Shown in pieces: positions 14,284 to 19,152 of a DNA stretch of 21,513 nt. A program made the position numbers and the translations under genes. The stretch spans positions 1-21,513 of the forward strand of contig NJBH01000049.1 in the NCBI GenBank assembly GCA_005223125.1. The letters are read 5' to 3'. The notes beneath the pieces are model-generated. The model had not been told where the DNA came from, did no database searches, and saw nothing but the letters and a program-made list of their open reading frames with translations. This DNA comes from Promethearchaeota archaeon Loki_b32 (GTDB lineage: Archaea > Asgardarchaeota > Lokiarchaeia > Sigyniarchaeales > SOKP01). Numbering within the stretch: position 1 is the first letter of the stretch; each line of letters begins with the position of its first letter.

Positions 14284-14661
14284 ATGCCCGTTGGAATATT
14301 AGTGATAAGGTGGGACAATGAAATTGGACCTATCAATGAAGGTTTTTATCCCGATACCTTGAAGATTACGAATAATCTGCTCACCCAAGTGTATTCGAGT
14401 CACAGGTATCAAAGTCTTCACCCAGGATTCGCATCTATAAGTTTAAAGAATAACAAGGTCGTTTCCTTTTTCTCTGGAGTCGGACAAGACTTTATCTCGG
14501 TAGAGAACTATGTAGTTGCGCTTCTGCTGAGACGAGACGAAAAGCCCGGTAAATACCGTGAAATCTTAAAGACAATCGCAGCAGAAATACTAGAAAAAAT
14601 TCCAGATGAAAAGTATAAAGAAGTCTTGCCAAGCTTATATGAGCAATTGGCAAGAATTTAG
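14284..14661 (+). CDS. Stand-alone longin / uDENN-like domain protein (eukaryotic signature protein)
   Basis: 125 aa. N-terminal GILVIRWDNEIGP...FYP matches the (F/W)DxxxGP..P start of uDENN/NPRL2-type longins. Predicted beta-beta-alpha-beta-beta-beta-alpha-alpha order. Confidence 0.7.
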   Translation: MPVGILVIRWDNEIGPINEGFYPDTLKITNNLLTQVYSSHRYQSLHPGFASISLKNNKVVSFFSGVGQDFISVENYVVALLLRRDEKPGKYREILKTIAAEILEKIPDEKYKEVLPSLYEQLARI

Positions 14662-14856
14662 TAATAAAAGTAGAATCTTTTACTTATTTCTTTTTATTTT
14701 TATACCTGCAATATCTAACCATTAATACAAATTGAATCCCTAATATAATTAAACCTAAGAAAAAATTTAAATTAAAATTATAACTTTGAATTATTAGTAC
14801 CCTTAAAAGCTTGGAATTATGATTTCTAAAAATAATTTGGCTAAAACTTAAAAGTT

Positions 14857-15001
14857 GGAGAGGTTACCGAGCATGGTCAAAGCCATTTTACACCAAAATG
14901 GGTCAAGACTATAGGTGCTGGACTTAAGATCCAGTGGCAAATATTCAGTTTATAACTGAATAGCCAAAAGGCCTTCGGGAGTTCGAATCTCCCCTTCTCC
15001 A
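14857..15001 (+). tRNA. tRNA-Leu(UAA) with two non-canonical introns (14881-14912 and 14941-14968)
   Basis: Acceptor GGAGAGG (14857-63) pairs with CTTCTCC (14994-15000), discriminator A. Anticodon arm CTGGA-CTTAAGA-TCCAG with TAA at 14925-27. T arm GGGAG-TTCGAAT-CTCCC. Removing the 32-nt and 28-nt inserts gives an 85-nt type II tRNA with D arm ACCGAGCATGGTCAAAGGT and variable arm GGC-AAAG-GCC. CCA is not encoded. Confidence 0.93.
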
Positions 15002-15318
15002 CATATTTATAAACACAATTGACCTTATCTGTATATAACCATAATATTTTTTATTTAAATAAATCCGAGACCTTAAAAAGATAAGAATTATAATTTGTTT
15101 TAAATTATATCGCTGAAAAAAAACTATGAAAGTTGAATACACAAGAGAAATTAATAAAGAAAAATGTATATTGCATTCTGAAAATAAAAAGTTTTTAATG
15201 AGTGTTGAACAAAGAGAGGTTAACTTAAGTTTCAATAAAAAAAAATATATAAAATGTAAAATTAAGCTCTGTTGCAAATACTCATTTACTATGGGAACTC
15301 AGTACCGATTATTAAGCA

Positions 15319-18300
15319 TTATCTTGTGCTCTGAATAAATAATCTTTCTTTGCTCTGTTCTTTTTCCCATTTTTTACGCTCAGAACGCAACTTGAACAAA
15401 TCTATATCTTTAAATATCAAAAATTCTTCTTTTGCTGGTATGATTCGCTCAGTCCGGTCTTTTTCCGGAGTATAAATAAGAGACTCTCCAAATTCCCCAA
15501 TATTGGCAAAAAATGAGTACGCATAAATAGATCTACGGGCATCAAAGTGAGCTGCTTTAAAATCGGCTGTGACTGGTGTGAACGCAGGATTCAGAATTAT
15601 ATCAATCGGAGGTTCGAAATTTTTTAATTCTACTCTTAAATCCATATCAAGAAAGTCTCGACAAATAACAATAACTATTCTACCATATTCTGTATTACAT
15701 ATGATCGTTTTCCGTGGTAGACTGCTAACTTCTATTCCTTCTTTAAAACGTTTTCCTTCTCCAGTACCAATAATTGCGGGGATATGTTTTTCTTGTTCCC
15801 AAAGAATACCCTCCGGTCCAAAAACTATACTAATATTTCGGTGTGTTTCTAGGTCATGAAAAGATCCTGGAACTATATACATCTCATACAATTTGGCTTG
15901 ATCTCCAATCTCTTCCAAAAGTTCTCCATAATTCAAATCAATAGTCATTTCTGGGAAGAGTAAGATATTGACACCCTCATTGTGCGCTTTTTCAATCATA
16001 GATTTGACTTTAGTTCTTACTTCCTCAACTTTGTTCTCTCTTATACAAAGAAGACCTGAAGATTTCATTTCGAATAGTTCTTTCATGATATCTCCGGTCT
16101 CAGATACACCTATTTGAGCAATACCAACTCTACATTCTCTTTTTTGAATTTTAGGATATTCTTTAAACAGATCTCTATAGATTAATTCATACTTCTTTTT
16201 ATCCATTCTTTCTATTTCAATACGCCTTTCTGCATCGCTGAACTGACGGGCTTCACTTAATCGAGGAGATTGACTACTTTCAAGTGGACAAGAAGGAGCA
16301 ACTATACCCATAATACTTCGGGAAATTGAGGGTTCTTTTATCGTGCTTAAAGCTGAAAAAAGAATTGATTCTTCCTTCTCAACCCTATTCAATCGATCTT
16401 GAACTTCTTTCTCCTTGTCTTTATACCCCGCTTTACCAAATAATTCTACCGCAGATTTTAAATACTTCGCACCTATTCCTAAAAGATTTCCTTTTTCCTG
16501 AAGATCTCTTTCTTCATCAGCTCTGATTAGGTGCCATGCCGCGTCAAAATATATTGAAGTTGCTTGAGACCAGTCAGCTCCTCTTTCAAAGCCTCCTTTT
16601 TCATATAAAGTAGCGGCTTTACTAAGTGTTACCTTAACTTTCGGGTATAATTCTTTTTTAATGTTTATTTCAATGGATTCATCAAATTTACAGCCATATT
16701 CAAGCGCTTGGCAAAAAGTTGAATTCCCAGAAGATAGTAATTTTAACTTTGTATCTGTGAAAAAATCACTGGCTTTTGCAAACAACGCTGCTGCTTCGGA
16801 AAATCTGTACGGATCATCATATTTTTCAGCAAGTTCCATATTTTCCCAAGCTCTGCACAGATAATAAACAGCTTCTAATTCCTTTCGTTCTCGTTTAATT
16901 TTAAATAAAATACATATATCTCTGAATTGAGAAGATGCAAGCGCAAATTTTTCTGCAGCTGCAATATGTTCACCTTGTTTTCCTAATATCCTTGCTTCTT
17001 CAAGGTTTATTCTCGCGTCACAATGATTCACCCTTACTTGAGCGATTTTTTCAAATTTATTAATTCTCTCTTTTTCAAATTTTTCTCTTGATCGCTGATG
17101 GGATTTTAATAATGTTTTAATTGCTTTTTCAAAGATTTTTCCTGTCTCTTTAAAACTTTCTATGGCTTTTTCGTGCTTTTCTTGTTTACTCAGTTGCTCT
17201 GCTTCTTCCAATGATATCCATCCAGAATAATAAGATGCTTCATAACCGTAACTTGGTAATTCTATTAGTATATCATAAGCTTTCTTATAAAATTCCCTAG
17301 CTTGTATATGATTTTCTCGTATATGAAACGATTTAGCTTCTTCAATAAATTTCCAAGCCTTTACATAATTAAATTTCTCATTGACTCTATTTTTGAGAAG
17401 TTTATATTTTATCATTTTCAGTGACTTATTATATGCTTCCTGAGCTTTCTTATAATTTTCTGCAGAAAGCCTAAAATTACCCAATCGATCTTCTATACGA
17501 GCTATATATTGATAACTTGCGGCTTCATAAGAAGAATATCTTCTATCAACACTTTCTTTTATTGTGTGGAGAAAAATTTCCCGTGCTTGATTTAAAATAG
17601 TAGTTTCTCCCGTTATAATTCCTAATTCCTCAAATAATAGTCCAAGCCTCATTTGATCCCCAATAGTGCCACCACGAGATAACATAGCGTAATTAATTGA
17701 TTTTTTTTGGGCATTTATTGCCTTTTTGAGGTGTGTGATCCTGTCTTCCTTCTTTTTAGCGATATCTGCAAGAGTTTTATAAGCCTTATAAAGACTAGTA
17801 TAACCACCAGCCTGAGGAAATCCTCCCTCATATTTCAATCCGAATTTTTCTGCCTGTTTTGCGTGTTGAAGCATAATTTGGGCATATTCTCCTTGTTTTG
17901 TTTTTGATTCCGTAAGATAAATAAGTTGAGAGTAAGCAAATATCAAACCTTGGTACAACCAACCTATAATATTAGGGTAATTAGGTGCACTCATCGCTTC
18001 TTTTACATGTTGGATCCCTTTTTCAGCATAGATTTTGCGTTGTGCAGTAGTAAAAATACTCATTTGGGAAGAAGTAGTATAGTAAATTGCAGGTAATACA
18101 TTTGCCATAGAGCGATTAATACTATAAGAATGTGCATAGATCTTCCCTAATTCCAGACAGTCTTTGATGTCATTAAGAATTCTCTTCTGTAGATAATTAA
18201 TTCTACCACTAAAAAGTGCAAAATAATCTATGAAAAACAGACACACAAGTATATAACATTTACTTTTCGTTTTTCTGGCAAAATTTAAAGCTTTCTCTAG

Positions 18301-19152
18301 TAATTCTATTCCCTTATCAAGATATTCATCTTGTTCTCTTTCATCTTCTACGAATTGATATCCAAAACCGCAATACCAAATCCCTTTTACCGAGTAAACT
18401 AGATTGAGAGCATAAGGATCATCTAAATTATCAATTATCGCCAAACTTTTATTACATTTTCCAAAGAATTTCTTTATGGTTTCCTTAATATAGTCATTTT
18501 TCTTAAAGTCTTTGTTACACAATAAATTGAAACCAATCATAAGTTCCATATTCAATGACTCAGACAAAATCTGAATATTTCCAATCTTTCTTGAAATCTC
18601 CCAAGCTTTAATAGCAGATTCTCCTCCTTGTTGGGCAACCCGGTTATATTCTTCTTGATTAATCTTATAACCCATGAGGAGATCTGAAACTGACGCTATA
18701 CGGCACATTAATCTCGCAAAACTCTCTTTATCACCCTCCTTGGAATAAATTTCACTTGCTTCACTGAAAAGTTTAATAGCTTGATGATATGCCTTCTGAC
18801 CTTCCATATCAGAAGTTGCGAGAAACCCACTTGTAAAAAACATTTCTGCTTCGCATTCAAGCTCCATAGATCTATTTCCAAGCTGTTTAAAGAGATTCAT
18901 TGCTTCTTTGTAGGCTTCAACAGCACTTTTAATCTGGTTAATATATTCCTCAACTGTATCTATTGTATCAGCAGCTCTGGCGTGAGCATATCCAAGATTT
19001 TTATTATTTTCAGCAGCTTTCTCGACTAATTTTTTATCCATATAAAAGTTAACTGCTTGTTTATATAATTTAACTGCGTCTAACCAATTGTAAGCTTTCT
19101 CCTCTTCTCGTGCCTTCTCTAATAAGGTTTCTTCGCTTTGTTCTAAAGTCAT
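15319..19152 (-). CDS. Giant TPR/SNAP-like alpha-solenoid protein fused to a C-terminal carbon-nitrogen hydrolase (nitrilase superfamily) domain
   Basis: About 950 aa of helical TPR-like repeats. The C-terminal ~270 aa carry RVGIAQ, LLFPE (E1068), QEKH (K1122), VICRDF (C1164), FFAN and GES, i.e. an intact Glu-Lys-Cys triad. Confidence 0.85.
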   Translation of the reverse strand: MTLEQSEETLLEKAREEEKAYNWLDAVKLYKQAVNFYMDKKLVEKAAENNKNLGYAHARAADTIDTVEEYINQIKSAVEAYKEAMNLFKQLGNRSMELECEAEMFFTSGFLATSDMEGQKAYHQAIKLFSEASEIYSKEGDKESFARLMCRIASVSDLLMGYKINQEEYNRVAQQGGESAIKAWEISRKIGNIQILSESLNMELMIGFNLLCNKDFKKNDYIKETIKKFFGKCNKSLAIIDNLDDPYALNLVYSVKGIWYCGFGYQFVEDEREQDEYLDKGIELLEKALNFARKTKSKCYILVCLFFIDYFALFSGRINYLQKRILNDIKDCLELGKIYAHSYSINRSMANVLPAIYYTTSSQMSIFTTAQRKIYAEKGIQHVKEAMSAPNYPNIIGWLYQGLIFAYSQLIYLTESKTKQGEYAQIMLQHAKQAEKFGLKYEGGFPQAGGYTSLYKAYKTLADIAKKKEDRITHLKKAINAQKKSINYAMLSRGGTIGDQMRLGLLFEELGIITGETTILNQAREIFLHTIKESVDRRYSSYEAASYQYIARIEDRLGNFRLSAENYKKAQEAYNKSLKMIKYKLLKNRVNEKFNYVKAWKFIEEAKSFHIRENHIQAREFYKKAYDILIELPSYGYEASYYSGWISLEEAEQLSKQEKHEKAIESFKETGKIFEKAIKTLLKSHQRSREKFEKERINKFEKIAQVRVNHCDARINLEEARILGKQGEHIAAAEKFALASSQFRDICILFKIKRERKELEAVYYLCRAWENMELAEKYDDPYRFSEAAALFAKASDFFTDTKLKLLSSGNSTFCQALEYGCKFDESIEINIKKELYPKVKVTLSKAATLYEKGGFERGADWSQATSIYFDAAWHLIRADEERDLQEKGNLLGIGAKYLKSAVELFGKAGYKDKEKEVQDRLNRVEKEESILFSALSTIKEPSISRSIMGIVAPSCPLESSQSPRLSEARQFSDAERRIEIERMDKKKYELIYRDLFKEYPKIQKRECRVGIAQIGVSETGDIMKELFEMKSSGLLCIRENKVEEVRTKVKSMIEKAHNEGVNILLFPEMTIDLNYGELLEEIGDQAKLYEMYIVPGSFHDLETHRNISIVFGPEGILWEQEKHIPAIIGTGEGKRFKEGIEVSSLPRKTIICNTEYGRIVIVICRDFLDMDLRVELKNFEPPIDIILNPAFTPVTADFKAAHFDARRSIYAYSFFANIGEFGESLIYTPEKDRTERIIPAKEEFLIFKDIDLFKLRSERKKWEKEQSKERLFIQSTR

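Follow-up and report, generated by a model that had tools for sequence, protein, structure and literature searches.

A 145-nt gene for tRNA-Leu(UAA) occupies positions 14857-15001 (+ strand) of the window, the whole 21,513-nt stretch of DNA that was analyzed, and is made up of three exons and two introns. Exon 1 (14857..14880, +; 24 nt) supplies the 5' strand of the acceptor stem, U8-U9, the 5' strand of the D stem, and the D-loop as far as A21, and it ends in GGTCAA. Intron 1 (14881..14912, +; 32 nt) lies at D-loop position 21/22, and its boundary slides by 1 nt (A↓A, with the arrow marking the cut). Exon 2 (14913..14940, +; 28 nt) contains the 3' strand of the D stem, G26, the complete anticodon arm, and the first half of the variable arm, with GGCAA at its 3' end. 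Intron 2 (14941..14968, +; 28 nt) is located in the variable-arm loop and is of the helix-bulge-helix type. Exon 3 (14969..15001, +; 33 nt) provides the second half of the variable arm, the T arm (GGGAG TTCGAAT CTCCC), the 3' strand of the acceptor stem, and the discriminator A73; CCA is not encoded. The anticodon loop in exon 2 is CUUAAGA (CTTAAGA in DNA) with the anticodon UAA. This loop is contiguous, and therefore the 37/38 intron is absent, as the original prediction had it.

Both inserts were excised in silico, and ARAGORN identified the product as tRNA-Leu(taa), 85 nt in length, with the standard cloverleaf of a class II tRNA. This result bears out the proposal that the 145-nt gene becomes tRNA-Leu(UAA) on removal of 32 nt at 21/22 and 28 nt from the variable arm. 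The product has the class II Leu(UAA) features of a 7-bp acceptor stem, an anticodon loop of the form YU-UAA-RA, a long variable arm, a TTCRANN T loop, and A73. The predicted spliced junctions are GGTCAA joined to AGGTGCTGG at intron 1 and GTGGCAA joined to AGGCCTTC at intron 2. Standard annotation had been expected to miss the gene: in its unspliced form ARAGORN called no tRNA anywhere in the window, and Rfam gave no tRNA match in the window at the gathering score. A whole-genome search with RF00005 returned only a partial match to the 3' two thirds of the gene (14914-15001; 26.5 bits vs a cut-off of 29). A permissive Rfam search of 14600-15100 (E up to 1) returned only tRNA-like fragments, one tmRNA match, and one match to a plastid 3' UTR model. 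Group I and group II self-splicing introns were ruled out because the inserts are only 32 and 28 nt and no Rfam intron family was found at E up to 1. A split or permuted tRNA gene of the Nanoarchaeum or Caldivirga type was ruled out because the three exons are collinear within 145 nt.

A chance control was performed by removing up to two segments bounded by a 4-bp helix resembling that of a bulge-helix-bulge (BHB) motif and asking ARAGORN for a full-length tRNA. The control set consisted of 60 gene copies whose interior was shuffled while the acceptor ends were left as they are, and 60 145-mers drawn at random from the genome. A full-length tRNA was recovered from 0 of 60 shuffled copies and 0 of 60 random 145-mers (about 357,000 products). 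The real gene given the same treatment produced a tRNA in 77 of 2,142 products.

A conserved block precedes the gene at 14755..14815 (+), was aligned over 28 orthologous loci, and includes CCCTTAAAAGC at 14800-14810. The block contains the invariant run AAAATTTAAATTAAAATTATAACTTTGA followed by GTYACCCTTAAAAGCTTAG, and over the 28 loci it is much better conserved than the leader after it. The distance from the block to the tRNA is about 28 to 70 nt. A TTAAAAG motif is found about 25 nt before the mature 5' end in two relatives, L033 and L085. The block probably comprises a putative promoter (TATA-like) region plus something else. The idea that it is a promoter common to tRNA genes was rejected because the block is unique in the genome. 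On the opposite strand, a 110-aa ORF with a TTG start (14945-15277, -) runs antisense over exon 3 and intron 2 and is probably spurious. The gene is adjoined by a 1277-aa protein (15319-19152, -) that has weak Pfam matches (SNAP, TPR_12, MIT) in its N-terminal half.

Splice motifs and folding of the precursor

The motifs were scored against the canonical geometry of 4 exon bases, 2 exon bases, the cut, and 1 intron base on the 5' side and 4 intron bases, 2 intron bases, the cut, and 1 exon base on the 3' side. Both introns have the BHB-type core, a 4-bp central helix and, in symmetrical positions, cuts that follow the second base of a 3-nt strand. Neither has the strict hBHBh' form, which consists of two true 3-nt bulges and outer helices of at least 2 bp. 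Both motifs are relaxed and not strict BHB motifs. The 4-bp helices and 3-nt strands described in the original prediction are present, but the strands are only partly true bulges.

Intron 2 has the central helix UGGC/GCCA (4 of 4 pairs) and the strands AA↓A and AA↓A. Its 5' bulge is clean, and the inner hairpin, of 9 bp, directly adjoins both strands. At the 3' cut the AAA strand is unpaired and the exon-side outer helix is 0, which gives the HBh' form. In 12 orthologous copies, 86.5% of cells are paired compared to 27-46% when the partner is slid by 1-3 columns, and 6 of the 9 inner-helix pairs have changed on both sides. Intron 2 is 28 nt long in every ortholog that has one. In the unconstrained fold, the GCC of intron 2 pairs with a GGC of the 3' exon and the central helix is not formed.

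The central helix of intron 1 is GGUC/GACU (4 of 4 pairs, one of them G-U), and its strands are AA↓A and AU↓A. Intron 1 exists in several forms, and the short form (32-33 nt) is present in this genome and in about 17 other distinct genes. It consists of the hairpin CCAUUUU/AAAAUGG, then an unpaired GUCAA, and then the GACU that pairs with the exon GGUC. The hairpin shows compensatory change, being CCAUUUU/AAAAUGG here and CUUUAAA/UUUAAGG in L033. The long form found in relatives (49-53 nt) has a 6-bp inner helix, UUGAYC/GGGUCAA, that adjoins the central helix and creates a proper 5' bulge. The short form keeps GGGUCAA and has lost its pairing partner, the 5' strand of the inner helix, and therefore both intron 1 cut sites fall in internal loops. 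The 5' cut lies in a 4x5 internal loop closed by the CCAUUUU/AAAAUGG hairpin, and the 3' cut lies on the 3-nt side of a 6x3 internal loop between the central helix and the D stem. The short form scores 0 for the inner helix and 1 for the outer helix. The mini form of L065, at 16 nt, is a simple bulge-helix-loop. Short, long, and mini forms all share the central helix GGUC/GACY and the 3' strand AU↓A. The segment GGGUCAAGACUAU of the short form is nearly invariant over many species and repeats the D-loop sequence UGGUCAA, but the fraction of variable columns in intron 1 as a whole is, by eye, about that of the exons, and extra conservation of the intron is not claimed. The short form of intron 1 is a looser substrate than the characterized HBh' and hBH forms.

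The precursor fold has a z score of -4.5 vs shuffles. A fold containing all of the cloverleaf helices and both central helices has an energy of -49.1 kcal/mol compared to a minimum of -50.6 kcal/mol, a cost of 1.5 kcal/mol. In the minimum-energy fold, the central helix of intron 1 is extended over the 3' cut.

Orthologs and the predicted junctions

A BLAST search of 40 related genomes together with a pattern scan of public genomes yielded 31 distinct orthologous genes; the locus L090, taken from the wrong strand, was left out. With the inserts removed, all 31 became an 85-nt Leu(UAA) in ARAGORN. Stem covariation was examined in an alignment of 30 orthologous sequences of exactly 85 nt. Acceptor pairs 3-82, 4-81, 5-80, and 7-78 change on both sides with 0 unpaired cells, as do T-stem pairs 62-76 (GC, UA, AU) and 64-74. 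Because the acceptor pairs link exon 1 with exon 3, selection acts on the spliced molecule, across both introns.

Intron 2 is missing exactly at the predicted junction in six orthologs of the same genus (L028, L031, L032, L035, L036, and L080), so the variable-arm junction foreseen in the original prediction occurs as contiguous sequence. The orthologs that lack intron 2 read GTGGC(AA/GC)AGGCC, and most of them read GTGGCAAAGGCC. The D-loop junction GGTCAAAGG is uninterrupted in another Asgard family. Of 19 genomes of that family, 14 have the uninterrupted junction GGTCAAAGGCG before a UAA anticodon arm, as against 0 of 25 in the gene's own family. One gene with the uninterrupted D-loop junction, L106, instead has an intron near position 8/9. 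There are intron-less relatives at each site, and therefore both predicted junctions exist as contiguous DNA.

All same-genus orthologs examined have the 21/22 intron, and so do members of families f2 and f4 of the order (L040-L042, L046). A search pattern limited to inserts of 12-42 nt at 21/22, and hence blind to the longer intron forms, matched 34 of 68 genomes of the same family and 0 of 232 sampled genomes of the other families of the phylum, a sample that does not include f4. The 21/22 intron of Leu(UAA) seems to be fixed in the genus and widespread in the family and order rather than a recent gain. Over the relatives, the Leu(UAA) gene has one to four introns at a minimum of six or seven sites, in mosaic combinations. 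The ortholog at L037:1443-1664 (G022, same genus) is 222 nt long and has four introns, in the D-loop, at 43/44, in the variable loop, and in the T-loop. L085 combines the intron 1 type of L033 with the intron 2 type of the present gene. NCBI labels were considered as evidence for conservation across classes and rejected: the genes from records labeled Hodarchaeota, Thorarchaeota, and Hermodarchaeota (L054, L058, L060, L053) are identical or near-identical to those of genomes placed in the same genus by GTDB. The submitter labels of those public MAG records look unreliable.

Splicing enzymes, codon demand, and the other tRNA genes

The genome encodes two proteins of the PF01974 family. The alpha EndA (C18:184174-184782; 202 aa) has the catalytic alpha chain of A. 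pernix as its best match (3p1z_B, E 2e-35). In it the Tyr and Lys are retained, as is the His that is mutated in 3ajv, and lysine K60 of its N-terminal loop aligns with A. pernix K44, making this a crenarchaeal-type loop. The second protein (C2:78428-79045; 205 aa) gives a match to M. jannaschii EndA, but an Asp substitutes for the catalytic His and it lacks the loop; it is predicted to be the structural beta subunit. Broad specificity is conferred by this loop, of which K44 is the conserved residue, and an alpha-beta EndA that has the loop has been reported for Asgard archaea (Kaneta et al. 2018, PMC5829648). The encoded EndA, with alpha and beta subunits and the loop lysine, is predicted to be of the broad-specificity type, in line with the original prediction. 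Both splice motifs are relaxed, and therefore a broad-specificity EndA would be needed. RtcB is also encoded (568 bits).

The genome has a GC content of 29.9%, and same-genus records are labeled Promethearchaeia or Promethearchaeota, which agrees with its earlier description as AT-rich and Asgard-like. UUA had been called a very frequent leucine codon; in 1,237 long ORFs it accounts for 50.4% of Leu codons and 49 per 1000 codons, and it ranks fifth in usage among codons. The proposed check for a sole Leu(UAA) gene found no other copy, intron-less copies included, in the draft genome, which is 95.5% complete. The pattern YTTAARN with any 5-bp stem occurs at 33 genome sites, and a T arm lies downstream only at the present gene. 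The other leucine genes are CAG and UAG, both intron-less, a second UAG copy, and GAG. The second Leu(UAG) gene (C48:141435-141551, -) has a 32-nt D-loop intron with the same 21/22 site and GGUC/GACU helix as Leu(UAA), a likeness that could reflect shared ancestry or transfer between isoacceptors. No other genomic copies of introns 1 and 2 were found by blastn-short against the genome, and therefore there is no sign of recent transposition within it.

ARAGORN finds 11 intron-less tRNAs in the whole genome (95.5% complete), and about 42 tRNA loci were recovered when acceptor pairing together with a T arm served as the anchor. Nine of the anchored loci are uninterrupted and about 33 of 42 (about three quarters) are interrupted. 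Some 15 are 102-182 nt long although their T arm is intact, and in about 18 the T loop (TTCRA...) contains an insert of roughly 30 nt, which makes it the most frequent intron site of the genome (examples are C4:20616-20778, C27:43896-43999, and C37:65917-66021). About 15 of the anchored loci are long enough for at least two introns. The Leu(UAA) gene is typical of its genome.

A splice-and-scan pipeline labeled two further loci 'Leu taa', and neither is a second Leu(UAA) gene. Manual reading showed that C48:118159-118320 (-) is Leu(CAA), whose anticodon has an intron immediately before it and another immediately after it; ARAGORN misreads this 162-nt gene as 'tRNA-Stop(tta)' with a 78-nt intron. 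Manual reading and comparison with relatives showed that C57:25989-26170 (+) is a class I Ile(UAU) with three introns. This Ile(UAU) gene (L089:101-282) is 182 nt long and has two D-loop inserts, one of them missing from some relatives, and an insert of about 55 nt at 38/39; query positions 48-155, including the long insert, are about 80% conserved over the genus. The pipeline miscalled these two loci, and therefore its anticodon calls are unreliable and it was used for rough counts only.

Processing of the transcript and relation to known systems

The locus at 14857-15001 (+) is very probably a functional single-copy tRNA-Leu(UAA) gene from which EndA removes two introns and RtcB joins the exons. 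The gene anatomy, the contiguous junctions, the selection on the spliced cloverleaf, the encoded enzymes, and the codon demand are shown by the analysis; the excision itself and the exact bonds are inferred. The gene would be transcribed to a precursor of about 145 nt plus the leader. The alpha2-beta2 EndA would then cut out the 32-nt intron at D-loop 21/22 and the 28-nt intron in the variable-arm loop, each cut falling after the second base of the 3-nt strand beside the 4-bp exon-intron central helix. RtcB would join the three exons to give an 85-nt class II tRNA predicted to decode UUA, and UUG by wobble. The gene almost certainly requires double splicing.

The point at which another course could be imagined is the D-loop insert, which might be processed in a functional gene at bonds shifted by one to a few nucleotides, or through a conformer that is not BHB-like or a cofactor. 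The short form lacks an inner helix (inner 0, outer 1), its junction is ambiguous by 1 nt (A↓A), and the minimum-energy fold pairs A17-U56 and U18-A55 over the 3' cut of intron 1. The automatic pipeline also chose a different D-arm excision that likewise yielded Leu(taa). Against these points, relatives reading TTTGGTC do not conserve the two extra A-U pairs, and the GGUC/GACY helix with its AU↓A strand is the same in the short, long, and mini (16-nt) forms. The GGTCAAAGG D-loop that another Asgard family has uninterrupted is restored by the 21/22 junction alone. Processing by such another route is accordingly judged improbable.

Retention of one or both inserts, either in a decaying pseudogene or in a tRNA with an enlarged D-loop or variable arm, is less probable still and would be a considerable surprise. 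In its favor, some D-arm insertions without canonical motifs may not be introns (Goswami et al. preprint, bioRxiv 10.64898/2026.10.13.758758). Retention is hard to reconcile with the only Leu(UAA) gene found, serving the fifth most used codon, and with exons that stay perfectly paired, with compensatory changes, in 30 orthologs while the inserts are present in some and missing from others, with boundaries exact in length. Nor would a standard L-shaped tRNA accommodate 32 extra nt in its D-loop and 28 at the end of its variable arm.

The original prediction held that multi-intron tRNAs are best described in the Thermoproteales, but they have been published for Asgard archaea too (PMC11291895; bioRxiv 10.64898/2026.10.13.758758). 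In Atabeyarchaeia and Freyarchaeia, 92-95% of the tRNA genes contain introns, frequently non-canonical ones, and multiple introns occur in more than half of the genes (Valentin-Alvarado et al. 2024, PMC11291895). A survey of 90 Asgard genomes found up to five intervening sequences per gene, with a mean of 0.91 per gene in the non-focal families (Goswami et al. 2026 preprint, bioRxiv 10.64898/2026.10.13.758758). That survey describes repeated gains of Asgard tRNA introns with enrichment at BHB-compatible sites, a substantial minority without a canonical motif, above all in the D arm, and D-arm insertions that are systematically missed by tRNAscan-SE. The present case is likewise an Asgard genome with many such genes, and this gene has two introns outside 37/38. 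It resembles the multi-intron genes of Atabeyarchaeia and Freyarchaeia/Jordiarchaeia (PMC11291895, bioRxiv 10.64898/2026.10.13.758758) in having at least two short (about 20-35 nt) non-canonical introns that are gained and lost among close relatives, D-arm inserts missed by standard callers, BHB-compatible sites, and an alpha/beta EndA as a permissive background. It differs from the published focal Asgard families in belonging to a Loki-type (Promethearchaeia) genome; the main text of the Goswami preprint (bioRxiv 10.64898/2026.10.13.758758) contains neither 'Lokiarchae' nor 'Promethe'.

The gene also resembles those of Thermoproteales, as described in the work of Sugahara et al. (2008, Mol Biol Evol 25:2709) in the form cited in PMC11291895, with up to several BHB-type introns per gene at D-arm, variable-region, and T-arm sites and a heterotetrameric EndA with the crenarchaeal-specific loop. 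Unlike Thermoproteales, it belongs to a different phylum and to a mesophile-like genome of 30% GC in which T-loop introns of about 30 nt dominate (about 18 loci). Intron 2 is a textbook HBh' motif like the relaxed substrates of the A. pernix-type (alpha-beta)2 EndA (Hirata 2011 and Okuda 2011, to the extent that they are cited in PMC5829648). The alignment of K60 with A. pernix K44 likens the alpha EndA, at the level of sequence, to the enzyme that accepts relaxed substrates (HBh', hBH, and bulge-helix-loop). Intron 1 is unlike the assayed relaxed BHB substrates in that its short form has no true bulge at either cut.

The short form of intron 1 lacks a proper bulge, yet it is kept in many species. 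A speculative and rather unlikely proposal is that the Loki-type EndA accepts this form with neither cut in a true bulge, and that the retained GGGUCAA might stand in for the D-loop (with GG as the T-loop contact) while G18-G19 are locked in the central helix, so that the precursor would stay L-shaped for recognition. If the short form is spliced efficiently, the substrate accepted would be looser than any assayed BHB variant and the EndA more permissive than any assayed enzyme. Short-form intron 1 is a natural test substrate for how relaxed the Asgard EndA is. The finding leaves the known splicing mechanism unchanged. The one Leu(UAA) decoder that was found for the genome's most used leucine codon is missed by ARAGORN and Rfam; therefore, automated annotation would make the tRNA set look incomplete. 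Heavily interrupted Asgard tRNA genes are already known, and this Leu(UAA) gene is a further member that adds a Loki-type example to the picture of intron-riddled tRNA genes in Asgard archaea.
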